Assembly: GCA_002319795.1 (NCBI GenBank)
Contig: DCFU01000046.1
Coordinates: 70,864-134,863, forward strand
From: Megamonas sp. UBA1796
Lineage (GTDB): Bacteria > Bacillota > Negativicutes > Selenomonadales > Selenomonadaceae
Reading direction: 5' to 3'
DNA length: 64,000 bases
This document shows positions 24,324 through 57,710 of this stretch, piece after piece. Within the stretch, counting starts at the first letter, position 1, and each line of letters begins with the position of its first letter. A program made the translations under genes and the position numbers. The notes beneath the pieces are model-generated. The model saw nothing but the letters and a program-made list of their open reading frames with translations. It was not told the DNA's origin and made no database searches.

Positions 24324-24397
24324 GGTATATCCCCTCAAAATCCTGACTCACTTCAGTTTTCTGTTCCAAAGGAATTATACCACGATACTTTTATATT

Positions 24398-28642: not shown

Positions 28643-28674
28643 GCCCTGACCTCCGGCTTCCTTATCTCTTATTA

Positions 28675-29352: not shown

Positions 29353-29479
29353 ATACTCTGCACCCCATTCTTCAACAATTTTGGTCTTCTTCTATTTTAA
29401 CACGTCAAAACAGCACAGTAAATCAACCGGCATAAGAGATTCCAACTATATTAGAATACACGACCCTATCCTGTCTGTT

Positions 29480-31155: not shown

Positions 31156-31232
31156 AAAATCTCCTCCTCATATCGTCAAAGTTCTGCCGAGCAAAACATC
31201 GTTCTATTAAAAATTTCTCTAAAGCATGGTTC

Positions 31233-36439: not shown

Positions 36440-37687
36440 ATGATTTCACCAGAACGACTGACAGCACAACTGGCCCATTTAAATAAAATCTCTGCCCCGG
36501 ATATGGGACCCGGGATTCACCGTCTGGCATTTACAGACAGCGATTGGCAGGCTCGCGGCTATCTCATGCAGCTCATGGAGGATGCCGGTCTTACAGTGCA
36601 GGAAGATGCCTTCGGCAACGTCATCGGCCATCGGACTGGAGCGGATGATTCCCTGCCAGCCGTCATGCTGGGCTCGCATGCTGACAGTGTGCCCAGCGGC
36701 GGCAATTACGATGGCATCGTCGGTATTCTGGCGGCTATCGAGACCATACGAAGCCTGCAGCAGGATTGCTTCAAAAACGAACATCCGCTTGAAGTTGTAC
36801 TCTTTATGTGTGAGGAATCCAGCCGTTTCGGCGCCGCTACGCTCGGCAGCCGTGCCATGCGTGGAACGCTTACACCAGATGAGTTGCATCGCTTTACGGA
36901 TAAGGACGGACACAGCCTTTACGAAATTCTCCAATCACGTTCACTCAGACCAGAGGATATTGCATCTGCCAAATATGCCAAACCACTCAAGGCCTTTTTT
37001 GAGGTTCATATTGAACAGGGCCGGGTTCTGGAACACTCCAGGATACCGCTCGGCATCGTTACAGGCATAGCTGCTCCCACACGTCTGCGTGTTCATTTAC
37101 ATGGCAGTGCCGACCATAGCGGGGCCACCCCGATGGCTCTTCGGCACGATGGCAGCTGCGCAGCTGCAGAAATCATTCTCGCCGTAGAGCATGCCGCCAC
37201 CTTGCACAGCGACCCGCCTGTTGTCGGTACCGTTGGCATTTTGCGTGTTCATCCCTGCGCTATGAATGTCATACCCGGCGAGACCGAACTAGGTATTGAT
37301 ATCCGCAGCATTTCTTCTGCGGCAAAGGCAGAAACCGTTCGCATAGTATATGCCAGCATCCGGGCCATCTGCCAAAAACGAAGCATTCCCTATGATATCG
37401 AAGAAATCAGCAATGAAACACCGGTCATCATGAAGCCTGCCGTTACAGACTTCCTCGCCGGACTATGCCATACACAGGGAAAAAATTTTATAAAACTCCC
37501 CAGCGGTGCCGGGCATGATGCCATGCATTGGGCCGATTATGCACCTACAGGTATGCTCTTTATCCCCTGCAGGGACGGCATTAGTCATAATCCAGCCGAA
37601 TCCGCAGAACGCAACGATATTGTCTCCGTGACTGAAATACTTGAACAAGCCGTACGGACAGCAACAAAACAAAGCTTTGAATTTTGA
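36440..37687 (+). CDS. M20-family N-carbamoyl-L-amino-acid amidohydrolase / allantoate amidohydrolase-type enzyme
   Basis: The product contains HRLAFTDSDWQARGYLMQLMEDAGLTV..DAFGNVIG...GSHADSVPSGGNYDGIVG...CEESSRFG, the AmaB/AllC-type signature. It is 415 aa. Confidence 0.85.
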   Translation: MISPERLTAQLAHLNKISAPDMGPGIHRLAFTDSDWQARGYLMQLMEDAGLTVQEDAFGNVIGHRTGADDSLPAVMLGSHADSVPSGGNYDGIVGILAAIETIRSLQQDCFKNEHPLEVVLFMCEESSRFGAATLGSRAMRGTLTPDELHRFTDKDGHSLYEILQSRSLRPEDIASAKYAKPLKAFFEVHIEQGRVLEHSRIPLGIVTGIAAPTRLRVHLHGSADHSGATPMALRHDGSCAAAEIILAVEHAATLHSDPPVVGTVGILRVHPCAMNVIPGETELGIDIRSISSAAKAETVRIVYASIRAICQKRSIPYDIEEISNETPVIMKPAVTDFLAGLCHTQGKNFIKLPSGAGHDAMHWADYAPTGMLFIPCRDGISHNPAESAERNDIVSVTEILEQAVRTATKQSFEF

Positions 37688-37698
37688 TGTTTTCTCTT

Positions 37699-37740
37699 GC
37701 CGTATACCGTATACCATGCATCCGGTATACGGCGTCTTTA
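37699..37740 (+). terminator. Hairpin after the M20 amidohydrolase gene
   Basis: An 11 bp stem (GCCGTATACCG/CGGTATACGGC) has a 13 nt loop and is followed by GTCTTTATATA, a weak T-tract. Confidence 0.45.
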
Positions 37741-37804
37741 TATACATCTTTACAATCTATAACAAATTAAAATATTTTATATACTGTTATAACATATAGA
37801 AACC

Positions 37805-37834
37805 TTCAAAAACCATCAGAAAATTTGTTATACT
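37805..37834 (+). promoter_or_regulatory. Candidate sigma-70 promoter for dcuC-pepT
   Basis: A TTCAAA hexamer, an 18 nt spacer and an extended -10 TGTTATACT sit about 40 nt upstream of the dcuC ATG. Confidence 0.35.
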
Positions 37835-37872
37835 GAGAGTGCTTTATGTATTTTATTAATTGGAGGTATTAT

Positions 37873-39246
37873 ATGTTAGGTTTAATTTTAGCGACAATTA
37901 TGGTCGTATGGGTTGCCCGGTATGTCCTGAAAAAATATCCGCCGCAACCGGTCCTGTTCGTCGCTGGCATCATTATGATGCTGCTGGCCTTGTTCTTCGG
38001 TCTGGGAGAAATCCTGCCAAGCAAGGACAGTACAGGTTCCGTGTGGCTGGATATCATCCAGTTCATCAGTCTCACCTTCAGCAGCCGTGCCGCCAAGCTT
38101 GGCATGATCATCATGCTGATCGGCGGTTTTTCAAAGTATATGGACATGATTGGTGCCAGTACCGCACTGGTAAAAATCGCCATAAAACCACTCAAGAAAA
38201 TTGGCCAGCCATATCTGGTCCTGGCCCTGACTTCAGTCTTAGGTAATTTCCTGGCCATGTTTATCAGCAGTGCTTCCGGCTTCGGTCTATTGCTTATGGT
38301 TACGATGTATCCATTACTCGTGAAACTCGGTGTAAGCCGGCTTGCAGCGGCAGCCGTCATTGCTACGACAGCTGCTCCGGGCTGGGGACCAGCAGGGGCT
38401 GATAATATTTTCGCCGCTGAGCTTTGCGGCATGGAAATCGTGCCTTATTTCGTACAGTATCAGGTGCCGGTCGGACTCTGCACGGTAGCTGCACTGGCTA
38501 TCGGCCATTACTTCGTACAGCGCTGGTTCGATCGGCGTGAACCGGATGCATCTGCTGGAACGGATGTCTCCGTTTCTATCAATAACGGACAGCAGGACTC
38601 TCCTTCCGTGCCGGGATTCTATGCGTTATTACCCACCTTGCCGCTGCTCTTTGTACTTTTCTTTGGTCTGGGAGAATCCACGATAAAAATGGATATCAGT
38701 CTGGCTACGCTGCTCGGTCTGGTAATCACTATGCTAGTCGAGTTCATCCGGCATCGGAACGGATTGAAGCTCTTTAAAGATGTGCAGGCTTACTGGGATG
38801 GTATGGGGTCCCAGATGGCTCTTGTAGTCACGCTGATTGTTGCAGCTGAAACTTTTTCCAAAGGCCTTCTGGCGCTGGGGGCTATTGATACGCTTATCAA
38901 CAGTGCACAAGGTGCGGGCTTCGGCGGTATCGGCATGATGTTCGTATTCATAACGATCATCATCGCTGCCACACTGGTCACCGGCTCGGGCAATGCAACC
39001 TTCTTCGCCTTCGTACCGCTGGCGCCAAAGGTCGCACTGCTCTCAAATATCGCACCTGTTCTTTTGGTAATGCCTATGAATTTTGTTTCCAATCTGGCCA
39101 GGTCCCTTTCACCGATTTCCGCTGTCATGATTGTTGTCAGCGGTGCTGCGGGACTATCGCCGATAGAGCTTGCCAAGCGCACCTTCATCCCGGTCATTAT
39201 CGCAACCATCGTGAATATTGCAGTCACGCTTATATTATTTTTTTAA
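37873..39246 (+). CDS. dcuC: DcuC-family anaerobic C4-dicarboxylate carrier
   Basis: The N-terminus is MLGLILATIMVVWVARYVLKKY. The DcuC-like pattern includes GGFSKYMDMIGAS and FLAMFISSASG. The ATG at 37873 follows TGGAGGT. Confidence 0.75.
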   Translation: MLGLILATIMVVWVARYVLKKYPPQPVLFVAGIIMMLLALFFGLGEILPSKDSTGSVWLDIIQFISLTFSSRAAKLGMIIMLIGGFSKYMDMIGASTALVKIAIKPLKKIGQPYLVLALTSVLGNFLAMFISSASGFGLLLMVTMYPLLVKLGVSRLAAAAVIATTAAPGWGPAGADNIFAAELCGMEIVPYFVQYQVPVGLCTVAALAIGHYFVQRWFDRREPDASAGTDVSVSINNGQQDSPSVPGFYALLPTLPLLFVLFFGLGESTIKMDISLATLLGLVITMLVEFIRHRNGLKLFKDVQAYWDGMGSQMALVVTLIVAAETFSKGLLALGAIDTLINSAQGAGFGGIGMMFVFITIIIAATLVTGSGNATFFAFVPLAPKVALLSNIAPVLLVMPMNFVSNLARSLSPISAVMIVVSGAAGLSPIELAKRTFIPVIIATIVNIAVTLILFF

Positions 39247-39261
39247 AAGGAGACATTCTTT

Positions 39262-40506
39262 ATGGAAATTGAAATAACAAAACTTGTCGACCGCTTTAAT
39301 AAGTACATTCATTTCAACACACAGTCAAATGAAGACAATACGGCCTGCCCGAGCACTCCGGGGCAAATGCTGCTGGCAAAGTATCTGGCAGACGAACTCA
39401 CAGGTCTGGGGTTGACTGACGTACAAGTCGATGCCCACGGGTATGTAATGGCTACACTCCCCGATAACGGCTGCCCCGAAGCACCTGTTGTCGGCTTTAT
39501 CAGCCATATGGATACGAGTCCGGATATGGCTGGAGAGCCTATGCATCCCCGTATCGTAAAATCTTATGACGGACAGGATATCATTTTGAATGAAAAAGAA
39601 CATATTATCCTTTCATCTGCAGATTTCCCTGAACTCCTGGACTACATTGGACAGGATATCATGGTCACGGACGGGCTTACACTGCTGGGCGCCGACGACA
39701 AAGCCGGCATCTGCGCCATTGTTACCGCTATGGAATACCTGCAGGCACATCCCGAAATCAAGCATGGCAAAATACGTGTAGCCTTCACTCCCGATGAGGA
39801 GATTGGCCGCAGTGCAGACCTCTTCGACGTCAAAGCTTTCAATGCCGATTTTGCCTATACATTAGACGGCGATGCAATAGGCGGCCTGGAATTTGAAAAT
39901 TTCAACGGTGCCAATGTCGCCGTCAGCATACAGGGACGCGGCATGCATACAGGTTCTGCCAAAGGCCGGATGATCAATGCTCTGAAAATAGCCGCCGAAT
40001 GGCAGCTGCTGCTGCCGGCGGGCGAATGCCCGGAATGTACAGAAGGCTATGAAGGATTTTACCACGTCCACAAGATGTCCGGTGACGTTGAGCATGTACT
40101 GCTCCATATGCTGCTGCGTGACCACGACCGCAGGCTTCTCGAAAAACGTAAGGCTTTCCTGCACAGCATGGCAGAGCTCTTCAATACAAAATATGGTGCC
40201 GGGACAATTGAGATCATTATCAAAGACCGTTACTCCAACATGCGCGAAAAAATCGAACCGGTCATGTATATCGTTGACATCGCTAAAAAAGCTATGCTCG
40301 ACCTTGGCATAAAGCCCGTCTGCAAGCCTATCCGCGGCGGCACTGACGGAGCCCGGCTTTCCTTTATGGGGCTCCCTTGTCCGAATATTTTCACCGGAGG
40401 ACTCAACTTCCACGGCAAATTTGAATTTCTGCCGCTGTCTTCTCTGCAAAAAGCCTCAGAAACCGTAACCGGCATCGTCCATAATGTCGCGGAAATAAAA
40501 AAATAA
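39262..40506 (+). CDS. pepT: Peptidase T (tripeptide aminopeptidase, M20B)
   Basis: The product contains LVDRFNKYIHFNTQS...FISHMDTSPD...LLGADDKAGI...FTPDEEIG...RGGTDGA. It is 414 aa. Confidence 0.9.
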   Translation: MEIEITKLVDRFNKYIHFNTQSNEDNTACPSTPGQMLLAKYLADELTGLGLTDVQVDAHGYVMATLPDNGCPEAPVVGFISHMDTSPDMAGEPMHPRIVKSYDGQDIILNEKEHIILSSADFPELLDYIGQDIMVTDGLTLLGADDKAGICAIVTAMEYLQAHPEIKHGKIRVAFTPDEEIGRSADLFDVKAFNADFAYTLDGDAIGGLEFENFNGANVAVSIQGRGMHTGSAKGRMINALKIAAEWQLLLPAGECPECTEGYEGFYHVHKMSGDVEHVLLHMLLRDHDRRLLEKRKAFLHSMAELFNTKYGAGTIEIIIKDRYSNMREKIEPVMYIVDIAKKAMLDLGIKPVCKPIRGGTDGARLSFMGLPCPNIFTGGLNFHGKFEFLPLSSLQKASETVTGIVHNVAEIKK

Positions 40507-40540
40507 GTTCCAGCAACGAATCATATGCACTTAAAATACA

Positions 40541-40581
40541 ACATCTCCCATCATGCGTACCATGATGGGAGATGTTTTTAT
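40541..40581. terminator. Bidirectional terminator between convergent pepT and nagA
   Basis: A perfect 15 bp stem (ACATCTCCCATCATG/CATGATGGGAGATGT) has a 5 nt loop and is followed by TTTTTA. Confidence 0.75.
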
Positions 40582-40616: not shown

Positions 40617-41786
40617 TTACCTTCCCTGCTCATATACTGTGCGTCCGGCGACAATGGTCACCATAATACGTACCGCATCATCAAAAATCGTCAAATCCGC
40701 CTGATGCCCTATAGAAATGACACCTATGCTATCATATACGCCAAGCTCCTGCGCCGGGACTCGGGTCACAAGTTCTACGATTCTCGGCAAGGAAACACCT
40801 GTATTGCTGGCAAAATTGTTTACAGCACGATCCATCGTAAGCACACTGCCCGCAATGGTTCCATCCGCAAGGGTTGCAACCTGCCCCTTCACAAAAACGC
40901 ACTGTCCCCCAAGCTCGGATTCGCCATCTCCCATGAGGCACGCCCGCATCGAATCCGTGATGAGCACGATGTTTTCCCCATGCTTAGCGGCATATACAAT
41001 ACGCTGCGCCGCGGGATGCACATGTACATTGTCCGCAATGAGTTCACAGACCGCATCGCTGTCGAGCGCCGCCCCCACACCCCCTGGCTTCCTATGATGC
41101 AGTCCGGTCATCGCGTTAAAGAGATGTGTGATATGCCGCACCCCGTGCTGCGTAATAGCCTCCATTGCCCCCGCATAGTCTGCTGAGCTGTGCCCAATAG
41201 ACACAAGTATACCATTGCTGCGGCATTCCTCCACAAAACGGTAATCTCCCCCCAGCTCCTCAGGTGCCAGCGTAATAAGTTTCACAATATCCTTATAAGG
41301 AGCAATTCTGGCAAAATCCGCTTTGGCAATATTTGTCGCAGCCTGCGCACCTTTATGTGCCACATTGATGAACGGCCCTTCCATATGACACCCCAGTATG
41401 CCTGCTCCCGGCGTATCCTGCCGCATAGCGGTGCGCACATGCTCCAAAGCCCGATAAATACTGGGAAAATCATAGGTCATTGTCGTCGGCAAAAACGAGG
41501 TAACGCCCGTTTTTGCCTGCAGCCGCTGCATCAAGGGTATCGCCCGGGCATCGTCGTCCATAGTATCCGCTCCGCCGCAGCCATGAATATGCATATTAAT
41601 AAAACCCGGCGATACATAGCGTCCGCCTGCATTGATGATCTCCAGAACATCTTCACGTTCTGTGAGTTTTTCGTACGGTATAATCGCCTCAATCCTTGTA
41701 TCGTAAAGAAGCGCCTTTCCCGCAAGGACCGTAAAATGGCCATCCTCTCCGACAGCCAATATACGCCCGTTTATGATTGCCTTCAT
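40617..41786 (-). CDS. nagA: N-acetylglucosamine-6-phosphate deacetylase
   Basis: The product contains PGFINMHIHGCGG...ITLAPE...SIGHS...HLFNAM..., the NagA amidohydrolase motifs. It is 389 aa. Confidence 0.9.
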   Translation of the reverse strand: MKAIINGRILAVGEDGHFTVLAGKALLYDTRIEAIIPYEKLTEREDVLEIINAGGRYVSPGFINMHIHGCGGADTMDDDARAIPLMQRLQAKTGVTSFLPTTMTYDFPSIYRALEHVRTAMRQDTPGAGILGCHMEGPFINVAHKGAQAATNIAKADFARIAPYKDIVKLITLAPEELGGDYRFVEECRSNGILVSIGHSSADYAGAMEAITQHGVRHITHLFNAMTGLHHRKPGGVGAALDSDAVCELIADNVHVHPAAQRIVYAAKHGENIVLITDSMRACLMGDGESELGGQCVFVKGQVATLADGTIAGSVLTMDRAVNNFASNTGVSLPRIVELVTRVPAQELGVYDSIGVISIGHQADLTIFDDAVRIMVTIVAGRTVYEQGR

Positions 41787-41812: not shown

Positions 41813-42709
41813 TTACAGCAGCCCCTGCCGCTGTAAAAAATTATAAAGCGCACCAATCATGCCGGCGTCATTTTGCAGGCGCGCAAATTCGATACGTGTA
41901 GCCGCAAAAACATTTGACACGGTTACACTCTGAAACGCCTTCAGAATGCGTGGTTTCAGATAAACTTCCTGCGCCATGATGCCACCTCCCAGAATAACCA
42001 GTTCCGGATTCAGCACATAACAAATATTAGAAATTCCTACCGCCAGGCATTGTACCATACGATCAATCGCCGCGACTGCGATCGGATCTTTTTCTCTGGC
42101 CCACGCAAAAACCTGTCGGCCGTCGACAGCATCCTCCCGCAGCCCTTTTTGCGCAGCAACCTCCTGTACCAAATGCTTCGTTGAGGCCATTTCTTCCAGG
42201 GAGCTCGTTTTATCTATATGCATATAGCCAATCTCACCCGCACTGTAAGATGCCCCATGCAGAAGACGCTTATGCAGAATCACACAGCCGCCGATACCTG
42301 TGCCGACCGTAAGACAAAAAACGTCTTGTGCCCCCTGCGCAGCCCCAAGCCACAGCTCTCCGAGTCCTGCAGAGTTCACGTCATTTTCTACAGTGCAGGG
42401 TAAGCCGCTGTCTGCTGCCAACAATTCCCCAAGCTTCGTACCCGTATAGCCGGGTATGTTTTCGGAAGCATAAAGAATTCGTCCCGTCTCCGGGTCTACC
42501 ACACCGGCCGTTGATACCGCTATGCCACTTATCCCATCTGTTTCCTGATATTTTCTTACAATGTATTTCGCTTTCTCAATAACGGAGGCAGCTCCTTTGG
42601 TCGCTGCCTCCGTCGGCATGGACGCCTTGGTAAAAAAATTTCCCTGCGCATCCGCAAGACCATATTTCAGCGAAGTCCCGCCAATATCCATACATACGTA
42701 CTTCTGCAT
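41813..42709 (-). CDS. ROK-family sugar kinase (N-acetylmannosamine/glucose kinase type)
   Basis: The product contains CMDIGGTSLKYGL...ENDVNSAGLGE...LTVGTGIGGC...GEIGYMH. It is 298 aa. Confidence 0.85.
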   Translation of the reverse strand: MQKYVCMDIGGTSLKYGLADAQGNFFTKASMPTEAATKGAASVIEKAKYIVRKYQETDGISGIAVSTAGVVDPETGRILYASENIPGYTGTKLGELLAADSGLPCTVENDVNSAGLGELWLGAAQGAQDVFCLTVGTGIGGCVILHKRLLHGASYSAGEIGYMHIDKTSSLEEMASTKHLVQEVAAQKGLREDAVDGRQVFAWAREKDPIAVAAIDRMVQCLAVGISNICYVLNPELVILGGGIMAQEVYLKPRILKAFQSVTVSNVFAATRIEFARLQNDAGMIGALYNFLQRQGLL

Positions 42710-42736: not shown

Positions 42737-44101
42737 TCACCGGCTCACATAGCTGCGCTCTCCGGGCGGTATATCGTTCCATTCCAGAGTATTTACAGCA
42801 ATACCACGCTTTGCTGCCCAAGCAGCAGCAATCCCTGCTGCCTCACCAATACTCATACAGGTAGGCTGTATGCGCATAGAGGCCTCCAGAATAAAGCTCA
42901 CTGAGATGCAGCGCCCAACTACCAGCAGATTCGACACCTCACGCGTCACAAGCGAACGATACGGGACTTCATAGTATTCTCCCGCAGCGAGGTATTCGCC
43001 TACCTTCTCTCCATGCGCATCAATATACCAGGCTGTGCGCACCACGGCATCCGCAAAATGGCGCCGTGCATAGTAGTCCTCCTCTGTCATGCGGTATTTT
43101 CCGACGATGCGCCAGGACTCGCGCGCTCCCAGCATCGCTGCCTCACGACTTACATAGGCATGCGCAAACCCAGGCAGATGGCGGATAAGGTAGCGGCTCA
43201 CACGCCGGATCATTGCTCGTCCATACCGCACACCCTCACTATACGATACAGCCTCAGAAGCCCTGAAACGCACAGGAAGCTCCGGGCAGTTCATCGACAT
43301 ACAGCCCGGCTTGCCTGGAATCGTAAACGCCTGAAAATACTCCGCGTCCTCCTCCGTAAGCTCGCCGCTCTCAATGCCCCGGACAAAAAACGGCTCCAGC
43401 TTATATTTGATATCACGGTGGCGGGCAAGCGCAATTTCAAAATACGGAGGCTTTGTCTTGCACCAGTCATCATGGAGGCTCTGCATATAGTCACAGAGCT
43501 TAGCCAAATCAATGCCTCCCATTTCAAAACGGAAGCTCATCGGCTGGTTATTTCCTGTCTTCTCATATCCTGCCTCAGCGGGTATACCCGCAAGCCGCGA
43601 AAGCAGCGCGTCTCCGGTCGCATCAATAAAGGTATGTGCGCGAACAGCCGCCAAGCCCTCTATCGTCTGCACGATGACTGCCTGTATCGTATCCTGCTGC
43701 CGCACGATGTCAACGAGCACACTATGATACAGTACATGGACTCCGGCCTCGGCCAAAATTTCATCATAAACAAATGCCAGTGTCTCCGGATTCGTCCAGC
43801 CAAAATCTGTTACCCCGTCTGACATCTCGATTTCTTCAGCACGCATGCGCGCTTTGACTTCACGTACAAACGGCGTATCACTGTCCGGCGCAAAGGTAGG
43901 CATGAACGGTTCTACAAGCCCCAGTGTCTGCATACCGCCAAGCGCTATGCCCCGCTCTATGACAAGTGTCTCCAGCCCATTCCTCGCTGCGGAAGCCGCC
44001 GCGGCGGCACCGGACGTGCCTCCGCCCACGATACAGCATTCCACACATGCCAGCACTGGCAGTTCCCGGCCAGCATACTGGAGCATTTCTTTTTTCTCCA
44101 T
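42737..44101 (-). CDS. FAD-dependent oxidoreductase (FAD_oxidored/PF12831-like)
   Basis: The N-terminal dinucleotide fold is CCIVGGGTSGAAAAASAARNGLETLVIERGIALGG. It is about 455 aa. I prefer the start at 44101 (after GAGGTGAAGGA); a GTG at 44134 is also possible. Confidence 0.7.
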   Translation of the reverse strand: MEKKEMLQYAGRELPVLACVECCIVGGGTSGAAAAASAARNGLETLVIERGIALGGMQTLGLVEPFMPTFAPDSDTPFVREVKARMRAEEIEMSDGVTDFGWTNPETLAFVYDEILAEAGVHVLYHSVLVDIVRQQDTIQAVIVQTIEGLAAVRAHTFIDATGDALLSRLAGIPAEAGYEKTGNNQPMSFRFEMGGIDLAKLCDYMQSLHDDWCKTKPPYFEIALARHRDIKYKLEPFFVRGIESGELTEEDAEYFQAFTIPGKPGCMSMNCPELPVRFRASEAVSYSEGVRYGRAMIRRVSRYLIRHLPGFAHAYVSREAAMLGARESWRIVGKYRMTEEDYYARRHFADAVVRTAWYIDAHGEKVGEYLAAGEYYEVPYRSLVTREVSNLLVVGRCISVSFILEASMRIQPTCMSIGEAAGIAAAWAAKRGIAVNTLEWNDIPPGERSYVSR

Positions 44102-44136
44102 ATCCTTCACCTCAAAACGGCCTATAGCCGCCACTT

Positions 44137-46275
44137 TTATTTTACCGCAACAACGATGATAGTTTCCTCATCCTTTGCACCATCAAGCTCCATCTCCAGT
44201 ACCGAATCAATTTGCTCACGGCTCACAAGACCAGACATATCTACCTGCTTTTCGCCATAATAGGCATAAAGCTGCGGCAGCTGCCCGCCGACCGTGCCAT
44301 ATTCCGTATGTGTATCAATGAGCTCGGTAAGCTCCGCCGCAAGTTCTTTTTTCGTTACCAATATAACCCCGGCAGCTTCTTTCTGCAAACGTACAACGCC
44401 ATCCCGGTCAAGCACACGCATAGAATGGTGCTTTTTTTTGAAAAACCAAAAACCTTTTTCCTCGCGCACACCTTCGAATACATGCCATTTGCCTGCCGTG
44501 GCGATTTCCTGCACCTTAGCAACCGGCAGCTCCATAGATGCTGCCGCCGCAGTCAGAAGTGCCTCCGCGCTGAGTTCTTTATCCCCAAGACTGCGCGTCC
44601 GAAGCTCTGTGGCTCCCATAGCGACAGCACGCAGGATATTCGCCTGCTTGTCGATTTCAATCGATACCTCTACCGTTTCCTCACTCGCACCGGATTTCAT
44701 GACCTGCTCCACAGCCTCGCGGCGTATAGAACGTATATCCTCCTGGGTGGGGCTTACAACCGTACGTTCGACAACCTCACGCACCATAGCAAGCGCTACA
44801 CCGATGGTCGAAATAATCGGTGCATTCTTTACGATTTTCCACTTGCAGCCCATAGCCTCTCCGAGGTATGGTGCCAGCACACCGCCGCTGCCTCCGCCGC
44901 CGGCGAGACATAGCGTGCCTGCTGACAACTCATAATCGTGCATAAGCGCCTCAACAATTTCCCTCACCTTGGATACCGCCAAATCCATCGCCTGCTTTGC
45001 CGCCTGTTCCGCCGTTATTCCTATAGTATCGCCCAGCGCCTGCCAGGCTATGCGCGCAGCCTCACGATTGCCCGCGGCATAGTCACCGTCCGGGACCTTA
45101 CCCAGAAGATTCGCTGCACCCGCAAGCGTAAGCGCGACCCGGCGACCATCAGAACCCACGGCAGCGGCAAACGCCATTTCATCCTCAGCACAAGGCGCCA
45201 GCAGCGCAAGCTTTGCCTCGGCAAGCGGCTCAGAAAACACCTCATAGCTGAGCCCCGCAATATGTGCACTGCGCGGCCCGACATCACGTATAAGACCATC
45301 CGTGACACGTATCATGCTGCCGCCTGCAACCCCCAGCGTACGTACATCAAGGGAATTCAAATAAGTTTTATGCCCCCCGACCTGCGCATACCGCACCATA
45401 ACACGGCCATTTCGCACGGCAGAAATATCGGTTGAGGTACCGCCTGCTTCAAGGAAAATGCCGTCTGAAAGCTTCTCATACATGAGTGCACCCGCTACTC
45501 CGGCAGCCAGACCGGAAAGCATCGTAAGAATCGGGCGGCGGCGCACCTCATCCACCGTCATGACCCCGCCGTCGCAGCGCATGATCATAAGCTGCGCCCC
45601 TATGCCGGACCGTTTCACACAGGCCTCCGTCATATCCGCAGTTTCCATCATTTTGGGAATCAGGCTCCCGTTGATGACCGCCGTACGCGTACGCACCCGC
45701 AAACCATATAGTTGGGATACCTCATGCCCGCCCGTCGCGTAGAGATTGCTGGCACGCGCCAGCCTTACAACAAATTCTTCATTGGCAGGATCATCCACCC
45801 CGAAAGACTCCGAAGCGACGATAACCGAAGCGTCCTGCTGTGCCAGTTCAGCAATTCCGGTACGAATTTCCTTTTCCGAAGCTGCAGCATTCTCCGTTTC
45901 TACATAAGCATGTACCGTCTTTAGTTCTTTACCCTGCGCGAGCGGTATATTTCCCACATCACTGTCACTTTTTACCCGCGCCGACTCAAGCCCGCTGCCC
46001 ATCGCGAGTACGCCGACCTTAGCCACATCACCCTCAAGCAAAGCATTCGTAGCCTGCGTTGTCCCATGCGCGATAAAAACGACTTCCTCCGGCGCAATAT
46101 GGTTTTTGGCAAGGATATCCTGCAGAATGTGGATGATTCCCTCAGCTACGCCCTCCTTGGCGGCATGCGTCGTAGGGATTTTCTCCTGCGCAATGATTTC
46201 ATATGTGGTATCATCAATCGCCACGGCATCTGTAAAAGTCCCGCCGACATCAATACCTATCCTGACTTTTCTCAT
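44137..46275 (-). CDS. Hydantoinase/oxoprolinase-family (HyuA-like, ASKHA-fold) protein
   Basis: The product begins MRKVRIGIDVGGTFTDAV and later has HGTTQATNALLEG, MRCDGG and LEAGGTSTDIS. It is 712 aa. No HyuB-type partner is nearby. Confidence 0.75.
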   Translation of the reverse strand: MRKVRIGIDVGGTFTDAVAIDDTTYEIIAQEKIPTTHAAKEGVAEGIIHILQDILAKNHIAPEEVVFIAHGTTQATNALLEGDVAKVGVLAMGSGLESARVKSDSDVGNIPLAQGKELKTVHAYVETENAAASEKEIRTGIAELAQQDASVIVASESFGVDDPANEEFVVRLARASNLYATGGHEVSQLYGLRVRTRTAVINGSLIPKMMETADMTEACVKRSGIGAQLMIMRCDGGVMTVDEVRRRPILTMLSGLAAGVAGALMYEKLSDGIFLEAGGTSTDISAVRNGRVMVRYAQVGGHKTYLNSLDVRTLGVAGGSMIRVTDGLIRDVGPRSAHIAGLSYEVFSEPLAEAKLALLAPCAEDEMAFAAAVGSDGRRVALTLAGAANLLGKVPDGDYAAGNREAARIAWQALGDTIGITAEQAAKQAMDLAVSKVREIVEALMHDYELSAGTLCLAGGGGSGGVLAPYLGEAMGCKWKIVKNAPIISTIGVALAMVREVVERTVVSPTQEDIRSIRREAVEQVMKSGASEETVEVSIEIDKQANILRAVAMGATELRTRSLGDKELSAEALLTAAAASMELPVAKVQEIATAGKWHVFEGVREEKGFWFFKKKHHSMRVLDRDGVVRLQKEAAGVILVTKKELAAELTELIDTHTEYGTVGGQLPQLYAYYGEKQVDMSGLVSREQIDSVLEMELDGAKDEETIIVVAVK

Positions 46276-46288
46276 GAATTGCTCCTCC

Positions 46289-47686
46289 TTACCATCTCAC
46301 AAATGTCACATAAAGCAGCATGATGATACACATGGCCCAGGTATATGGCAAAGTCTTTTTCAGAATTGCCGCGGTGTCCACGTTGGCAAAACCGCCGATC
46401 CATGTATTATGTGAATTCGTTGGATCCGAGGCCGCCTGGATATATTGCACCCCCAGGAATGTACCCGCTACAACCTCCGGTGGAAGTATCTGCAGCGAAA
46501 CAATCAAAGCCGCAATCCCGGCACCCATACCAAACATATTGAGGGGTCCGCGATACAGTGCGGTTGGAGCCAGAATAGCAAAGAAAAGCAATAAACCTAT
46601 ATGACTTGACGGAATAATCGCAGCCAGTATCGGATTCAAAACGGCAGAAACTGCCGGATTCATAACAACGGCTACAAGCATGCCAATCCCCATGAACAGG
46701 AACAGCACTCCTGCGATATCTTTGATGCCGTCTACGATAGAGCCGGCAAAAATATTGACAAATTGTTTTGGTCTTGTAAGCAGTATGGCATAGCCTGAGG
46801 CAATAAGGAAGCCGAATACAGATGCTGCTACCGGATCTACCATGCCGTTCTCAGCCTTGCCGAAGCCCACAAAGGCTTTGAATATATATACGGTAGCCAA
46901 GGGGATAATCGGTGCCAGAAGTGCCAGCGCCGGTACGTGGCTCCTCTTTTTCAGCAAAACTGAATTCTGTGTTGGTTTTCTTTTTATGCTCTTGAATATC
47001 ACCGTAAATAAAACTCCTGGCAAAGCTGCCAGGGCACGGATAAATTTACCGAAAACCTTCAAAGCAGAAGCACTGCCCTGTTCACTGCCCTGTTTGACAT
47101 TCAGTATGATAAACACCAACGTAATCAAGACAGAAATTCCTACGGCCGGTACATAATAGCTCGCCGTAACTTCACCGCCGAAAATGCCGATATACGTACC
47201 GTAATTTGCCGCATTGGCCAGAAGCCCTGTCTGCAAACCGAATAGCAGCAGCACACAGGCAACGAGCGGGGAAATCCCTGCGGACATCATGATAGGAATT
47301 GTGATAGAGCCAACCATAATAACTGCCCCGAGCCCGCTCATCCCAAGAAACACAAAAGCCGTAGCTGCCGTAAGCACGATAGCGATTGGCACCGGCTGGT
47401 CGCCTGCAAGTTCCGCAGCCTTCTTGATAATCGTATCTGATATACCCGTCTTCATAATGACGCGGGCAAACATAGCGCCAAAAATGACAACAGCCATAGC
47501 ACTCGCAAGCTTCATCGCACCATCAAGCAAAATCCCGTTCAGATATACCACGAGCGGCAGCTGCACAACAAAGGCAATCCATGCTGCCATGAGCGGCAGC
47601 GCAAGAATCGTCGGCAATATACGCGCAATCATAAGTCCGGCAAAAACAAAGAAGCCGCCTAAAATCAATATACCTGCTATGCTCAT
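46289..47686 (-). CDS. Ion-transporter-superfamily permease (GntP/DcuC/CitMHS-like), substrate unknown
   Basis: It is about 465 aa and highly hydrophobic (MSIAGILILGGFFVFAGLMIA...). The ATG at 47686 follows AGGAGGG and overlaps the nanE stop by 1 nt (TAATG). The Cys-rich 35 aa extension in the track ORF is probably an artefact. Confidence 0.6.
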   Translation of the reverse strand: MSIAGILILGGFFVFAGLMIARILPTILALPLMAAWIAFVVQLPLVVYLNGILLDGAMKLASAMAVVIFGAMFARVIMKTGISDTIIKKAAELAGDQPVPIAIVLTAATAFVFLGMSGLGAVIMVGSITIPIMMSAGISPLVACVLLLFGLQTGLLANAANYGTYIGIFGGEVTASYYVPAVGISVLITLVFIILNVKQGSEQGSASALKVFGKFIRALAALPGVLFTVIFKSIKRKPTQNSVLLKKRSHVPALALLAPIIPLATVYIFKAFVGFGKAENGMVDPVAASVFGFLIASGYAILLTRPKQFVNIFAGSIVDGIKDIAGVLFLFMGIGMLVAVVMNPAVSAVLNPILAAIIPSSHIGLLLFFAILAPTALYRGPLNMFGMGAGIAALIVSLQILPPEVVAGTFLGVQYIQAASDPTNSHNTWIGGFANVDTAAILKKTLPYTWAMCIIMLLYVTFVRW

Positions 47687-48366
47687 TATGATTTCCCTCC
47701 TAAAGCACTGGCAAATTTGGCAGTAATAAGCTGCGGCCGCGTAATAGCAGAGCCAACAATCGGCGCATAAGCACCTGCTTCCATGACACATCTGACATCC
47801 TCCGGTGTATGAATGCGTCCCTCAGCAAAAACCGGTACAGGTGCATCCGATGAAAGCCGCTGCACCAGCACCACATCTGGTCCCGCAAGCTGCGAAGAAT
47901 AGGGTGTATAGCCCGACATCGTAGTGGAAACAGCATCTGCACCCAGCCTTGCCGCTTCCATTCCCTCTTCATAGGTAGAAATATCTGCCAGCACAAGCAC
48001 TCCGGCGTTATGCACCCTATCTACAAGTTCCTTCACCCCGATACCGCCCGGCCTTTTCCGTGCCGTCATATCGACAGCAATCATCTCGCATCCTGTGGTT
48101 AAAAGCTCCTGCACTTCACGCAGCGTTGCCGTAATATAGATATCCGAATCCTCATAATTCCGCTTGATAAGGCCTATGACCGGCAGCCCTGTAACTTTTT
48201 TGATTTCTTTGATGTCATCCACGCTCTGCGCCCGGATGACTGACGCTCCGCCTTCCTTTGCTGCTTTGGCCATCCGGCCCATAATAAATGCACTATGCAG
48301 CGGCTCATCCGGCAATGCCTGACATGAGACAACCAGCTTACCCTTTACTCCAGCCAAAAAATCCAT
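47686..48366 (-). CDS. nanE: N-acetylmannosamine-6-phosphate 2-epimerase
   Basis: The product contains LKGKLVVSCQALPDEPLH...GLPVIGLIKR...ADISTYEEG...GYT..., the NanE signature. I chose the start at 48366, after GGGGGAGG. Confidence 0.9.
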   Translation of the reverse strand: MDFLAGVKGKLVVSCQALPDEPLHSAFIMGRMAKAAKEGGASVIRAQSVDDIKEIKKVTGLPVIGLIKRNYEDSDIYITATLREVQELLTTGCEMIAVDMTARKRPGGIGVKELVDRVHNAGVLVLADISTYEEGMEAARLGADAVSTTMSGYTPYSSQLAGPDVVLVQRLSSDAPVPVFAEGRIHTPEDVRCVMEAGAYAPIVGSAITRPQLITAKFASALGGKS

Positions 48367-48410: not shown

Positions 48411-49160
48411 TCAACATGGTGCTTTTACAGCCTGCGGTAAAAGCGCAGCAGCATCATGATCTACGATAACCGTAACATCGCGATGCAGCTGCAGTATAGA
48501 AGCCGGCGCTGCCGGACTCACACCGCCGCAGACAGCCTTGCAGATTGCCTCTGCCTTATTTTTGCCGTTCGCGAGCAGTACCACCTTCTTCGCAAGCATG
48601 ATATTTTTTATTCCCATGCTGATAGCATAGCGGGGCACCTCCTGCTCATCTGTAAAGAATCGTGCATTGGCCTGTATTGTTTCCTCATCAAGCCGTACCC
48701 GATGCGTCGTCGCCTCAAATTTTATATCCGGTTCATTGAAGCCGATATGCGCATTCTGTCCGATGCCCAGCACCTGGAGATCAATACCGCCGCGGCTTTC
48801 GATCAGTGCATCGTAGCGCGTTCCCTCTGCCACCATATCCGCAGCCATTCCGTCCGGGATGTAAACATTTTCTGATTTTATATTGATCCGGTCAAAAAAA
48901 TTCTTGTGCATAAAATAATGATAGCTTTGCGGATTCTCCGGTTCAAGTCCGATATACTCATCCAGATTGAAGCTTATAATCTCCGAAAAATCAAGGCCGA
49001 TGGTTTCATGCACCGCAATGAGCTTCTTATATAGTCCCAGTGGTGTACTGCCTGTAGCCATCCCCAGTACACTGTCCGGCTTCAGATATATCTGGCCGGC
49101 AAAAATTTTTGCAGCAGCTACGCTCATCTCTTCGTAAGAATTCGTTATAATTAGACGCAT
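48411..49160 (-). CDS. nagB: Glucosamine-6-phosphate deaminase
   Basis: The product contains MRLIITNSYEEMS...LGMATGSTP...NLDEY...GIGQNAHIGFNEP. It is 249 aa. Confidence 0.9.
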   Translation of the reverse strand: MRLIITNSYEEMSVAAAKIFAGQIYLKPDSVLGMATGSTPLGLYKKLIAVHETIGLDFSEIISFNLDEYIGLEPENPQSYHYFMHKNFFDRINIKSENVYIPDGMAADMVAEGTRYDALIESRGGIDLQVLGIGQNAHIGFNEPDIKFEATTHRVRLDEETIQANARFFTDEQEVPRYAISMGIKNIMLAKKVVLLANGKNKAEAICKAVCGGVSPAAPASILQLHRDVTVIVDHDAAALLPQAVKAPC

Positions 49161-49175
49161 TCCTTCATCCCTCCA

Positions 49176-50021
49176 TTATTGGCGGAGAAACTCCATGGCC
49201 ACGGCTGTCTTTTGCTTGTTTTCTGCCGCACTTTCGGACATCTCCTTAACAATTTGTGTATAGATAAGATCCATGATAAAAAACTGCGCAAGCTTTGTCG
49301 TAATAGAACCAGTCTCCAGCATGGATTCCTTGGCTTCATAAGTAATATGGATATTCGCAATCCTGCCGATACCGCTGCTCTTATTCGATGTAATAGCGAT
49401 AGCTCTCGCACCATTTTCCTGCGCAAGCTTTACAGTCTTCAGCACTTCCGGCGACTTGCCGGAATGCGATACCGCCACGATCACATCTCCCGGTCCGGCA
49501 AGCGATGCCATAATCAGCATCGTATGACTGTTGTCCAGCCCCAGGCTCTCAAATCCAATGCGATAAAATTTATAAGCCGTATCCTGCGCCACAAAGCCTG
49601 AGTTTCCCAAACCAATGAACCGCAGCCGCTTAGCCGAACGCATGAGTGCTGCACAAGATTCCACACTGCCTTCCATAAGAGACGCCAGCGTTTTTTCCAA
49701 CGTACCGATATTCGCATCCAGCAGCTTACGCCCCGTAACAAGTGCCGATTCACCGCAGCTGATGCTGCTGTTGATAATATACCGGTTTGTTCCCTCCGTA
49801 AGCTCCTCTGCCAGAGCAAGCTTAAACGCCTGAAGACTGGCAAAACCCATTTTTTTGACAAATCGGGTAATCGTGGCTTCACCTACACCTGAAGTTATCG
49901 CCAGCTTCGCAATGGCTGTATGCGGCACATCGGGTGCATTCTTCTTTATATAGGCCATAAGAAGTTTGTCTGATTTGGACGGACGAAACTCCGGATGATC
50001 CAATTGCTCCAATATGCTCAT
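49176..50021 (-). CDS. RpiR/MurR-family regulator (HTH_6 plus SIS domain)
   Basis: The HTH is IAKLAITSGVGEATITRFVKKMGFASLQAFK. The SIS domain contains RFIGLGNSGFVAQD...VAVSHSGKSPE. It is the first gene of the amino-sugar operon. Confidence 0.85.
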   Translation of the reverse strand: MSILEQLDHPEFRPSKSDKLLMAYIKKNAPDVPHTAIAKLAITSGVGEATITRFVKKMGFASLQAFKLALAEELTEGTNRYIINSSISCGESALVTGRKLLDANIGTLEKTLASLMEGSVESCAALMRSAKRLRFIGLGNSGFVAQDTAYKFYRIGFESLGLDNSHTMLIMASLAGPGDVIVAVSHSGKSPEVLKTVKLAQENGARAIAITSNKSSGIGRIANIHITYEAKESMLETGSITTKLAQFFIMDLIYTQIVKEMSESAAENKQKTAVAMEFLRQ

Positions 50022-56021: not shown

Positions 56022-56045
56022 ATACTCCCACTCCCTATTCCAGCT

Positions 56046-57416
56046 TCAACGTTTTTCCAATGCAGCCAATATGTTGTTCTCCTGCGCCTCATAACGGCGG
56101 TAGAAAAGCATCGGCACGATTCCCAGCGCGAATATGACGGCTGGCAGCCAGATGAATACCAGCTGTATCCCGACAAGCGCCTGCGCGGACTGCACCGCAT
56201 TCGGCACATAACCGAAAAAGTTCATGACCATCGCTGGCAGGAAACCACCGATGCCAGAGCCTGCTTTGATGCAGAAAGCACTGCCGATTGCTGTAAGAAA
56301 ACCGCTCGCCCGGATGCCTGTCTTCCACTCGCCATAGTCTACCGTATCCGAAAGCATCGCAAACGGCATAGAGCAGGCAATCCCCTGACCAATAGAGCTC
56401 AAGCACCAAAAGGTTATGAGCATAGTCATATAAGTCCCTGCGAAATACATGCCGATATGTCCGGCAACCGCGAGGACGAGCCCGAAGATCATCGTCATAT
56501 ATTTACTGCTATGGCGCACCAAAAACGGAATTGAGAGCATCCCCAGCACCTGGATCACCATGAAGCCGTTGACAACAGCCGCGATGCTCTTGTCCCCCAG
56601 ATAATATTGACAATAATACACCACCGTGGACTGGCGCACCGTAAGCGCTATCCAAAAAATAAGGTTCGCTGTGACAAGTATCATCCACGGCCAATTCCCT
56701 TTAATCGCCTTCAGGCTCGCTTTGACCGGAATCTGTTTGATTTTTTCGACATTCGTCTCCCGGAGATTCTTGAAAGCCACGAAAAAGAGCACGACGGCCG
56801 CTGCCCCGAAAACCGCCAAAGTGATTGAGAACCCTCGCTGGTCGTTCCCACCGCCAAAGAAAGCCACCAGCGGCAGCGTGAACGTCATGCAGGTAAATGC
56901 TCCCACATTCCCCCCGACCATACGGAAGGTATTGAGTACGACGCGTTCCTTCGGATCGTGCGTGAGGTTCGGCAAAATCGAAGTAATCGCCGTCTGTATG
57001 CCTGTATAGACGATTCCCGCGATGATATAGGTAGTCGCCGCATAAACAATCTTTGCCGTCCCATCGAGGGCCGGGGTCGTGAACGTCAGCCACATGAATA
57101 CCGCGAACGGTACACTGAGCCAAAGAAAATATGGCCGGCTCTGCCCATATTTTGTTTTTGTATGATCCACGATGACACCCCAGATTGGCGCATCCACCGC
57201 ATCCAACAACCGTGTCGCCAACAACAGTGTGCCTGTGACGGCCACCGATAGGCCAAATACATCCGTATAAAAATACAACAAAAATGAACCTATAATGCAA
57301 TACAGCAGATTGCCACACCCATCGGTGAGAGAATAGCTCAACCTGCTTCCCAACGAACTCGTCATCTTCACCGGCTTCTCTTCCTTCATCGCCGTACAAT
57401 TGTCTGCTATGCCCAT
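56046..57416 (-). CDS. Glycoside-pentoside-hexuronide (GPH):cation symporter
   Basis: The product contains LSYSLTDGCGNLLYCIIGSFLLYFYTDVFGL...LLATRLLDAVDAPIWGVIVD, the GPH signature. I chose the ATG at 57416, 7 nt after AGGAGG. Confidence 0.8.
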   Translation of the reverse strand: MGIADNCTAMKEEKPVKMTSSLGSRLSYSLTDGCGNLLYCIIGSFLLYFYTDVFGLSVAVTGTLLLATRLLDAVDAPIWGVIVDHTKTKYGQSRPYFLWLSVPFAVFMWLTFTTPALDGTAKIVYAATTYIIAGIVYTGIQTAITSILPNLTHDPKERVVLNTFRMVGGNVGAFTCMTFTLPLVAFFGGGNDQRGFSITLAVFGAAAVVLFFVAFKNLRETNVEKIKQIPVKASLKAIKGNWPWMILVTANLIFWIALTVRQSTVVYYCQYYLGDKSIAAVVNGFMVIQVLGMLSIPFLVRHSSKYMTMIFGLVLAVAGHIGMYFAGTYMTMLITFWCLSSIGQGIACSMPFAMLSDTVDYGEWKTGIRASGFLTAIGSAFCIKAGSGIGGFLPAMVMNFFGYVPNAVQSAQALVGIQLVFIWLPAVIFALGIVPMLFYRRYEAQENNILAALEKR

Positions 57417-57710
57417 TCCTATACCTCCTAATACAACAAGAGCGAAATATTTCACGAAATAAAAATGTTCCGTCAATTATCTGTTTCTTCTGGCTGCGCA
57501 TCCAAGAATCTGTCTAATATTATATCGCAGGAACCCGACTGGAAACAGAAATAAAGTTTACCTTTTATATAACATAACAAACCTTATTTTTATAATAAAA
57601 TAAACCTAATAAATAGAATTTGTGCTAAAATTAAAGGAAAGAACACTAAAAAACATAGAAAATACATGGATACTCTATATAACAAAATGAATATAAGGAT
57701 GTGAGTCTGA

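Follow-up and report, generated by a model that had tools for sequence, protein, structure and literature searches.

A permease, a stand-alone HyuA-like ATPase and a PF12831 flavoprotein inside an amino-sugar operon of Megamonas: a candidate route to N-acetylmannosamine

A 64,000-nucleotide stretch of the Megamonas sp. UBA1796 genome (assembly GCA_002319795.1, contig DCFU01000046.1, positions 70,864 to 134,863; hereafter the window) carries an amino-sugar operon with three unexpected consecutive genes. They encode a polytopic permease, a stand-alone ATPase of the HyuA type and a flavoprotein of the PF12831 (FAD_oxidored) family, and they sit between the genes for the N-acetylmannosamine-6-phosphate (ManNAc-6-P) 2-epimerase NanE and a NanK-like kinase of the ROK family. 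The reading favored here, with a probability of about 0.55, is that the trio is a conserved and transferable cassette for uptake and ATP-dependent conversion, which would deliver N-acetylmannosamine (ManNAc) or ManNAc-6-P to the NanK-like kinase, NanE, NagA, and NagB. In effect, the cassette would hold the place of NanT and NanA in a classical sialic-acid operon. Its substrate, as a guess, would be an anionic and possibly cyclic derivative of an amino sugar.

The operon spans positions 50021 to 40617 of the minus strand and, by open reading frame (ORF) listing and translation, runs in the order rpiR-nagB-nanE-permease-hyuA-like-FAD_oxidored-ROK-nagA. Its features are as follows.

49176-50021, minus strand: RpiR/MurR-family regulator, the first gene of the operon (Pfam HTH_6 and SIS; NCBIfam MurR/RpiR-family matches, all below cut-off)
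48411-49160, minus strand: nagB, glucosamine-6-phosphate deaminase (TIGR00502, 298.9 bits against a cut-off of 236.9; Pfam Glucosamine_iso)
47686-48366, minus strand: nanE, ManNAc-6-P 2-epimerase, 226 aa, with its ATG at 48366 (Pfam NanE, 1.8e-63; NF002231, 289.7 bits against a cut-off of 189)
46289-47686, minus strand: polytopic permease of an unmodelled family, probably of the ion transporter (IT) superfamily, 465 aa (weak matches of family members; hydropathy)
44137-46275, minus strand: HyuA-type ASKHA ATPase, stand-alone and of a divergent subfamily, 712 aa (Pfam Hydant_A_N and Hydantoinase_A)
42737-44101, minus strand: FAD_oxidored flavoprotein, cytoplasmic version, 454 aa from an ATG with a ribosome-binding site (PF12831, 3.9e-102)
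41813-42709, minus strand: ROK-family sugar kinase, NanK-like (Pfam ROK, 4.4e-48)
40617-41786, minus strand: nagA, N-acetylglucosamine-6-phosphate (GlcNAc-6-P) deacetylase, the last gene of the operon (TIGR00221, 303.5 bits against a cut-off of 225.65; Pfam Amidohydro_1)
40540-40576, both strands: bidirectional hairpin resembling an intrinsic terminator (16-bp stem with 7 GC pairs; T-run on the plus strand)

Successive genes are separated, in order, by 15, 44, -1, 13, 35, 27, and 26 nt, and a GGAGG-like ribosome-binding site precedes every start codon. The stop codon of nanE overlaps the ATG of the permease gene (TAATG). The longest ORF for the flavoprotein starts at a GTG at 44134 and would encode 465 aa, and if this start is taken the gap to the HyuA-like gene shrinks from 35 to 2 nt. 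The initial annotation of this DNA gave coordinates, sizes, and spacings for the trio that the ORF listing and the measured gaps reproduce throughout. At the far end, the hairpin closes both the nagA side of the operon and a convergent gene for an M20 peptidase. The identical eight-gene arrangement is found on two independent public contigs, and the eight genes form a single catabolic operon.

To judge by their sequences, the enzymes that flank the trio are genuine enzymes of amino-sugar breakdown. NanE aligns end to end with the solved NanE of Clostridium perfringens (4UTT, E = 1.5e-85), and the best solved relative of the ROK kinase is an N-acetylmannosamine kinase (5NCK, E = 8e-49). Both nagA and nagB exceed NCBIfam equivalog cut-offs, while NanE exceeds the cut-off of its subfamily. 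These matches, with those to Pfam and the spacing, bear out the initial placement of the trio inside an amino-sugar operon; it is co-directional with real genes of the NanK/NanE/NagA/NagB set.

The nearest described arrangement is the classical Gram-positive nan operon (NanR(RpiR)-NanE-NanA-NanT-NanK with NagA/NagB), with which the Megamonas operon shares an RpiR/SIS regulator, NanE, a NanK-like ROK kinase, NagA, and NagB. It differs in having neither NanA nor a sialate transporter of the NanT, SSS, TRAP, or ABC type, and the permease, the HyuA-like protein, and the PF12831 protein stand in their place. A Pfam scan of the operon and of flanking window ORFs (not every ORF) found no lyase of the DHDPS/NanA type and no known family of sialate transporters; neither is among the 25 commonest Pfam families of the neighboring ORFs at 80 related loci. 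The other comparison to be drawn is with muramic-acid recycling by AnmK/MurQ or MurK/MurQ. There the likeness would lie in a proposed ATP-dependent step by an ASKHA enzyme on an imported carboxylated amino sugar, in a MurR/RpiR-type regulator, and in GlcNAc-6-P as the end product. However, the ATPase here is of the HyuA rather than the AnmK type, there is no SIS-domain etherase (the sole SIS domain of the operon sits in the regulator, which bears a helix-turn-helix domain), and NanE and a flavoprotein are present. No AnmK- or MurQ-type match was obtained among the operon proteins scanned against Pfam and NCBIfam.

The central protein of the cassette belongs to the HyuA-type ASKHA family by both of its Pfam domains (Hydant_A_N, E = 1e-26; Hydantoinase_A, E = 4e-62). 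The kinase half-reaction is generally assigned to HyuA-type subunits in oxoprolinases, lactamases, and ketone carboxylases. Residues ~500-712 lie outside both Pfam matches, and PDB sequence matches, to the N-methylhydantoinase NMHase (7hk5) and to caprolactamase (6yra), cover only residues ~3-338. An AlphaFold2 (AF2) model (predicted local distance difference test, pLDDT, 86) gives as its top Foldseek matches in the PDB NMHase, the HyuA-type subunits of acetone and acetophenone carboxylases, and caprolactamase (9h03, 5svc, 5l9w, 6yra), with E = 1e-22 to 1e-31 and template-modelling (TM) scores of ~0.5. The protein thus resembles the HyuA-type subunits of hydantoinase, oxoprolinase, caprolactamase, and the ketone carboxylases (PF05378 and PF01968) in both domains, in overall model fold, and in its nucleotide motifs. 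It departs from them in that sequence similarity is limited to the N-terminal ~340 residues, at ~16-20% identity, and in that its partners are a permease and often a ~220-aa HExxH protein instead of HyuB.

The motifs DxGGT, GGTS, and GGGG are invariant in 22 HyuA-like sequences, down to 28% identity, and may be read as the phosphate-1, phosphate-2, and adenosine loops of the ASKHA fold. Since these nucleotide motifs are invariant, the protein has probably retained ATP binding. The family is large: 433 cluster representatives match at E <= 1e-30, and the top-ranked full-length members (~690-735 aa) align end to end. Fusions among its relatives, sought as Rosetta-stone evidence, add an N-terminal Ser/Thr protein-kinase or FTR1-like iron-permease domain (proteins P0272, P0375, and P0320) and give no functional lead.

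What the protein lacks is a HyuB partner, as the initial annotation had claimed. Neither the HyuA-like protein nor the window ORFs scanned (those of the operon and other large candidates, not every ORF) contain a Hydantoinase_B domain. The domain is likewise absent from the 25 commonest Pfam families of 271 neighboring ORFs at 80 related loci, and from the neighbors scanned individually, although a distant partner may be encoded elsewhere in the genome. The absence of a HyuB domain and of a recurrent HyuB neighbor makes the namesake two-subunit reaction unlikely, in agreement with the original assessment. A complete or fused oxoprolinase is rejected, as there is no HyuB domain and the match to the fused 1288-aa NMHase is confined to the HyuA part of that enzyme. 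Relatives are currently annotated as "N-methylhydantoinase A" or "hydantoinase/oxoprolinase family protein", and for this family such names are probably misleading.

The flavoprotein matches PF12831 strongly and over its full length (343 bits, with the cut-off at 27 and profile positions 2-410 of 416 covered), whereas the nearest solved structures share with it only the generic two-domain fold that binds flavin adenine dinucleotide (FAD). Its GxGxxG motif lies at residues 26-31, with G26, G27, G28, and G31 invariant. Many Arg residues are also invariant in the alignment, which would fit an anionic substrate. The AF2 model (pLDDT 80) has the two-domain FAD fold, and Foldseek against the PDB returned only generic folds of this kind at TM <= 0.48, without a functional lead: geranylgeranyl reductase-like proteins, halogenases, monooxygenases, flavocytochrome c3, NikD, and MSOX. 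PDB sequence matches (Thi4, thioredoxin-reductase-type proteins) come only through the FAD-binding motif. The invariant motifs of the HyuA-like protein, its HyuA-type model fold, and the invariant Arg residues of the flavoprotein make the enzymes of the trio look functional.

Paralogues of the flavoprotein at 62-67% identity carry the twin-arginine signal SRRDFMK and would be exported by the twin-arginine translocation (Tat) pathway; in Selenomonas they stand alone or beside a DUF4127 gene (L011:10001-13122, L012:10001-11446, proteins P0495 and P0464). Because such close paralogues are exported, the substrate of the flavoprotein is probably unphosphorylated, and the step that it catalyzes may precede uptake. 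In Acidobacteria and Oscillospiraceae, DUF4127 is a repeated neighbor of the HyuA-like core as well. In the literature searched, PF12831 is mentioned only in flavoproteome or expression lists, and no functional account of it was found.

The permease is the least well classified of the three. It matches no Pfam or NCBIfam model and no PDB sequence. Its 15 overlapping hydrophobic 19-mer peaks amount to ~12 segments and fit a polytopic protein of ~10-14 helices. Among 27 members of its family, weak Pfam matches are to GntP (7/27, best 2.5e-6), NhaC-type Na_H_antiporter (5/27), CitMHS (5/27), DctM (4/27), and DcuC (1/27), all of which we take to belong to the IT clan. In hhalign comparisons of the permease family with single-sequence templates, the DcuC-type carrier of the window reached a probability of 26% and Escherichia coli GntP 1.5%. 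The assignment to the IT superfamily proposed in the initial annotation is therefore plausible at the level of the family, through the matches of the relatives, while the window protein itself matches no model. An IT-type permease, together with the many invariant Arg residues of the flavoprotein, is the reason for proposing an anionic substrate.

Conservation of the neighborhood was surveyed in a species-level scan with one genome per species. At least 528 genomes encode a relative of the HyuA-like protein, and the best 80 loci were analyzed. The survey used crude ORF calling and searches with the window proteins and iterated profiles; many contigs are short, and 52 of the 80 loci have flanks of at least 5 kb. 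A neighbor was counted within 8 kb of the HyuA-like gene, and the HExxH gene immediately downstream of it. The counts are as follows.

Permease: 66/80 loci; 43/52 well-flanked loci
PF12831 flavoprotein: 41/80 loci; 31/52 well-flanked loci
HExxH mini-protein: 44/80 loci; 30/52 well-flanked loci
NanE: 19/80 loci; 14/52 well-flanked loci
RpiR: 6/80 loci; 6/52 well-flanked loci
ROK: 5/80 loci; 3/52 well-flanked loci
NagA: 2/80 loci; 2/52 well-flanked loci
NagB: 1/80 loci; 1/52 well-flanked loci

The conserved core is thus the permease and the HyuA-like protein, often with PF12831. Every neighboring permease, PF12831, and NanE gene lies on the strand of the HyuA-like gene, and the ROK kinase occurs only in loci that also have PF12831 (5/5). 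The carriers, from at least five phyla, include Bacillota (Clostridia, Negativicutes, Paenibacillus, Enterococcus), Ignavibacteriota/Bacteroidota, Acidobacteriota, Actinomycetota (Streptomyces), Melainabacteria, and Alphaproteobacteria. In Bacillota the NanE gene precedes the core (upstream position), and in Ignavibacteria and Acidobacteria it comes downstream; this difference in gene order argues for selection rather than the inheritance of one arrangement. By a rough estimate, a single-copy nanE gene would fall within 8 kb by chance in less than 1% of genomes. Chance juxtaposition is rejected on the co-directional recurrence across phyla in different gene orders.

The initial annotation asked whether the trio is conserved together with nanE and nagAB. 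For nanE the association stands, with 19/80 loci in several phyla and most of the close relatives; for nagA (2/80) and nagB (1/80) it does not hold as a rule. A full nagA/nagB operon encloses the cassette in just two members of the sample, the window and [Clostridium] aminophilum (L037). Elsewhere the recurrent neighbors are DUF4127, GHL10, pairs of GH3 glycoside hydrolases, BadF-type kinases, a GlmM-like mutase, HAD proteins, a NagX-like protein, a GH38/MngB-like protein, SGNH esterases, Zn-dependent alcohol dehydrogenases, and regulators of the ROK or LacI type. The whole set is carbohydrate-related, and many of its members are tied to amino sugars; in other phyla these are, among others, the BadF-type kinases, GH3, the GlmM-like mutase, the NagX-like protein, and the SGNH esterases.

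Close relatives (67-82% identity) are Negativicutes-like and have nanE-permease-hyuA, as a rule with FAD and ROK behind it; the best relatives at ~70% identity come from Acidaminococcaceae and Selenomonas. Their arrangements include nanE-perm-hyuA-FAD, nanE-perm-hyuA-FAD-ROK, DeoR-nanE-perm-hyuA without the flavoprotein, and perm-hyuA only. The order FAD-perm-hyuA is found on the Selenomonas ruminantium TAM6421 plasmid pSRC1 (SELR_RS16200-16210), and nanE-perm-hyuA-HExxH-FAD-rpiR lies beside insertion sequence elements in C. perfringens. With arrangements as varied as these, the cassette behaves as a mobile unit of three to five genes.

The core extends to archaea. Megaplasmids of haloarchaea encode a HyuA-like protein that is 43-44% identical, flanked in Halostagnicola by a permease of the "citrate transporter" type, a PF12831 protein (300 bits), and a 171-aa HExxH homologue (E = 5e-12 to the profile). 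Within 8 kb of this core lie genes for a 2-epimerase of the AGE family, a GH3 enzyme, and a sulfatase. The AGE epimerase is not homologous to NanE, and its presence may be taken as weak but independent support for a link to manno/gluco-hexosamines.

One claim of the initial annotation is revised by these comparisons. The ATPase was called an orphan, and it is not truly one, since a small HExxH protein is encoded directly downstream of the HyuA-like gene in 44/80 loci, and also in haloarchaea. Proteins of this family have ~220 aa (range ~170-226 aa; examples are L024:3883-4563, L009:13554-14234, and L095:11142-11657) and conserve the motifs "aHE.fH.LE" and "sEiaAh.F". No Pfam or NCBIfam model covers them, but the motifs look like those of a mini-gluzincin, and the protein may be a functional stand-in for HyuB. 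It is missing from the clade of the window, and no homologue of it exists elsewhere in the window. In Melainabacteria a DUF309 protein occupies the same position.

Sister versions of the core are associated with genes for sugar acids. HyuA-HExxH is joined to UxuA at L079:77-3941, and YiaK-like dehydrogenases lie near the core in L066 (2716-10226) and L085; the family is therefore not specific to amino sugars. A comparable operon in Ruminococcus gnavus ATCC 29149 (FXV78_RS16940-16965) encodes a DUF386 protein, a hydantoinase, a hypothetical "peptidase", UxuA, a YiaK-like protein, and a hypothetical protein; on agaro-oligosaccharides no other gene cluster was induced more strongly (log2FC ~4.1-4.4; PMC11581127). 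Its hydantoinase-peptidase-UxuA succession, in which the predicted peptidase is small, mirrors the HyuA-like-HExxH-UxuA of L079, with YiaK near the core as in L066 and L085; it differs from the Megamonas operon in carrying sugar-acid genes without NanE, PF12831, or NagAB. It is the only member-like locus found with expression data, and by its gene order it is a putative member of the subfamily. This sister variant hints that the ATPase family acts more generally on derivatives of sugar acids or anhydro sugars.

Taken together, the folds come from known superfamilies but the combination fits no described system. Lacking HyuB, the trio is not an oxoprolinase, a hydantoinase, or a ketone carboxylase; lacking NanA and NanT, the operon is not a nan operon; and lacking AnmK and MurQ, it is not known muramic recycling. 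The cluster is probably catabolic and puts HyuA chemistry to a new use. The full-text literature searched says nothing on what this HyuA subfamily, PF12831, or DUF4127 does. Searches for hydantoinase with nanE, ManNAc, muramic acid, or N-acetylglucosamine, and for sialic acid with oxoprolinase, returned no functional study, and the R. gnavus transcriptome was the only lead.

The anatomy, the family memberships, the absence of HyuB among the ORFs scanned, and the co-conservation are observed; from these features we infer the following route. The compound imported by the IT-type permease would be an anionic derivative of an N-acyl-hexosamine, which probably bears a carboxyl group and may be cyclic, as an anhydro form or a lactam. 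The PF12831 flavoprotein would then perform a redox reaction or a flavin-assisted cleavage on the compound, which is probably unphosphorylated at this point; the flavin step is placed before that of the ATPase because the 62-67% identical paralogues are exported to the periplasm. The stand-alone HyuA-type enzyme would spend ATP on it, possibly by moving a phosphoryl group to the oxygen of a carbonyl, an enol, or a hydroxyl, with ring opening or a phosphorylated sugar as the outcome, in a reaction that would resemble the kinase half-reaction of HyuA but proceed without HyuB. Since the ROK kinase occurs only where PF12831 occurs, the flavoprotein is proposed to yield a neutral sugar for it. This neutral product would be phosphorylated by the ROK kinase, NanE would convert ManNAc-6-P to GlcNAc-6-P, and NagA and NagB would carry the latter on to fructose-6-phosphate. 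The RpiR/SIS regulator probably senses a sugar-phosphate intermediate.

Several observations weigh against this route. None of the three families has a known substrate or activity. Few loci have nagA or nagB adjacent (2 and 1 of 80), and about three quarters lack NanE. There are relatives with nanE-permease-hyuA minus the flavoprotein, with permease-hyuA only, or with the core beside UxuA/YiaK, and from these variants it follows that the substrate range of the family is wider than amino sugars and that context does not settle the order or the necessity of the steps. IT membership of the permease, and hence the anionic nature of the substrate, rests on weak matches of its relatives. The HExxH partner is missing here, so that the enzyme may work differently or need a partner encoded elsewhere. 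Lastly, the flavoprotein would be a cytoplasmic enzyme of an anaerobe without an obvious electron acceptor.

Among the alternatives, the one that survives best is a specific version of the favored reading, and it is unlikely in this form: a route, independent of AnmK and MurQ, for muramic sugars of peptidoglycan, namely N-acetylmuramic acid (MurNAc), 1,6-anhydro-MurNAc, or the muramic-delta-lactam of spore cortex. After uptake of the carboxylated sugar by the permease, the HyuA-like protein would use ATP to open the ring (anhydro or lactam), oxidative removal of the D-lactyl ether would fall to the flavoprotein, and the ROK kinase, NanE, NagA, and NagB would finish the pathway. MurNAc is the most widespread carboxylated N-acetyl-hexosamine known to us, and the ATP-driven opening of thermodynamically stable rings is familiar from HyuA/HyuB enzymes and from the ASKHA kinase AnmK. 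The MurR/RpiR-type regulator of the operon would suit such a role, as would the pairs of GH3 (NagZ-like) enzymes, BadF-type (MurK-like) kinases, and SGNH esterases at related loci, the beta-lactamase-family and MurJ genes at others, and the NlpC/P60, L,D-transpeptidase, and PdaC neighbors at still others; the HExxH partner could be an amidase or a peptidase. However, these peptidoglycan-related neighbors are individually rare and could be due to chance. A gluco-configured MurNAc pathway leaves nothing for the 2-epimerase NanE to do, and yet among the enzymatic neighbors only the flavoprotein is more consistent. The core is also present in haloarchaea and Melainabacteria, and no etherase-like chemistry is known for PF12831. 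The muramic lactam, moreover, is not anionic, and muramic-delta-lactam was not adopted as the substrate because it also leaves NanE and NagA unexplained.

A route without an aldolase, from sialic acid or a modified or dehydrated nonulosonic acid to ManNAc, would replace NanT and NanA in a nan operon, but we consider it very unlikely. The operon does have all the parts of a Gram-positive nan operon save the lyase and a known transporter, with the trio in exactly that position, and sialic acids, as carboxylates, would suit an IT-type permease. C. perfringens, a user of sialic acid, has the cassette with nanE and RpiR, and NeuB-family genes occur at two related loci. Nevertheless, no chemical precedent can be proposed for an ATP- and flavin-dependent C-C cleavage of N-acetylneuraminic acid, sialidase and NanA are not among the 25 commonest families of the 271 neighboring ORFs, and the cassette is common in lineages of soil, freshwater, and hypersaline habitats, which offer few host sialoglycans. 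From legionaminic and pseudaminic acids the products would be 6-deoxy sugars, of no use to a 6-kinase or to NanE.

Equally improbable is that the permease and the HyuA-like protein (with the HExxH protein where there is one) serve a general salvage of a small lactam or keto acid that is not a sugar, for example as a third type of 5-oxoprolinase, in which case the amino-sugar setting would be fortuitous or regulatory and the flavoprotein a passenger. No other unit is as well conserved as the pair by itself (66/80); some genomes have it with no sugar gene at all, and it is present in Melainabacteria and Alphaproteobacteria. Lactam opening is the classical chemistry of HyuA, 5-oxoproline is a ubiquitous carboxylate, and a partner resembling a Zn-hydrolase could replace HyuB. 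Against this, carbohydrate-related genes overwhelmingly dominate among the informative neighbors (ROK-, LacI-, and RpiR-type regulators, glycoside hydrolases, sugar kinases, NanE, UxuA, and YiaK), and PF12831 (41/80) and NanE (19/80) are co-directional in different gene orders, far above chance. In addition, the R. gnavus operon of like gene order, whose hydantoinase is a putative member of the subfamily, is induced by an oligosaccharide preparation (PMC11581127).

It would be a similarly long shot for the HyuA-like protein to be a non-orthologous kinase of N-acetylmannosamine or a related hexosamine, coupled to a ManNAc-type permease, with the flavoprotein and the ROK kinase on a separate branch. 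Minimal cassettes such as DeoR-nanE-perm-hyuA, or perm-hyuA-nanE in Ignavibacteria, have no other kinase nearby and would require one, because the substrate of NanE must carry a 6-phosphate. The ASKHA fold is that of a kinase, and the ROK kinase is found only together with PF12831 (5/5). Yet a sugar kinase needs far less than this 712-aa HyuA-type architecture, which has a conserved C-terminal domain of 200 aa and often an HExxH partner. UxuA and YiaK are found paired with the family too, and an IT-type permease would be unusual for a neutral sugar.

Other parts of the window were noted in passing. On the plus strand at 36440-40506, two M20 peptidase genes enclose one for a DcuC-type carrier; this cluster is convergent with the operon, has the terminator in common with it, and could be a unit for uptake and hydrolysis of peptides or N-acyl-amino acids. 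The minus strand at 27866-32627 encodes an IclR regulator, an Asp/Glu/hydantoin racemase, a dihydroorotate-dehydrogenase-like protein, and an amidohydrolase (31233-32627), followed by an MFS carrier (32660-33961). The run resembles a cluster for the use of cyclic amides or dihydropyrimidine-type compounds and is by position unrelated to the HyuA-like gene. A 435-aa ORF (24398-25705, minus strand) without a Pfam match at E <= 1e-5 lies between a URO-D-like gene (25742-26776) and one for an M24 peptidase (23127-24338). A GH127 beta-L-arabinofuranosidase, an MFS_2 carrier, and an AraC regulator are encoded at 54054-58598, and an L-arabinose isomerase and an FGGY kinase at 9819-13088; the organism appears to use plant glycans and arabinose. 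GC skew is negative in all 2-kb bins up to ~60 kb (range -0.015 to -0.29, with the majority of bins from -0.1 to -0.25), and the minus strand carries most of the long ORFs, which would be consistent with a window on one replichore whose genes are co-oriented with replication.

If the cassette does convert an unrecognized and widespread amino-sugar derivative to ManNAc-6-P or GlcNAc-6-P, it would supply a missing branch of amino-sugar, peptidoglycan, or sialic-acid turnover in its carriers, which include rumen and gut anaerobes, C. perfringens, soil Actinomycetota and Acidobacteriota, Ignavibacteria, and haloarchaea. It would also be the first function assigned to any of three large unannotated families (the stand-alone HyuA subfamily, PF12831, and the unmodelled permease), bear on the HExxH mini-protein and DUF4127, and imply that HyuA-type ATPases can work without HyuB. 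A broader proposal, which is tentative and has the odds against it, is that HyuA enzymes independent of HyuB, often with a mini HExxH hydrolase, use ATP to open or activate inert cyclic derivatives of sugar acids. Candidates for such opening are 1,6-anhydro-MurNAc, muramic-delta-lactam, and 3,6-anhydro sugar acids. This would be a new principle in bacteria and archaea, and its amino-sugar version in Megamonas would be a new route for peptidoglycan- or ManNAc-type sugars into NanE and NagAB. Should the ATPase really open inert cyclic sugar acids without HyuB, there would be a moderate chance of something more fundamental.

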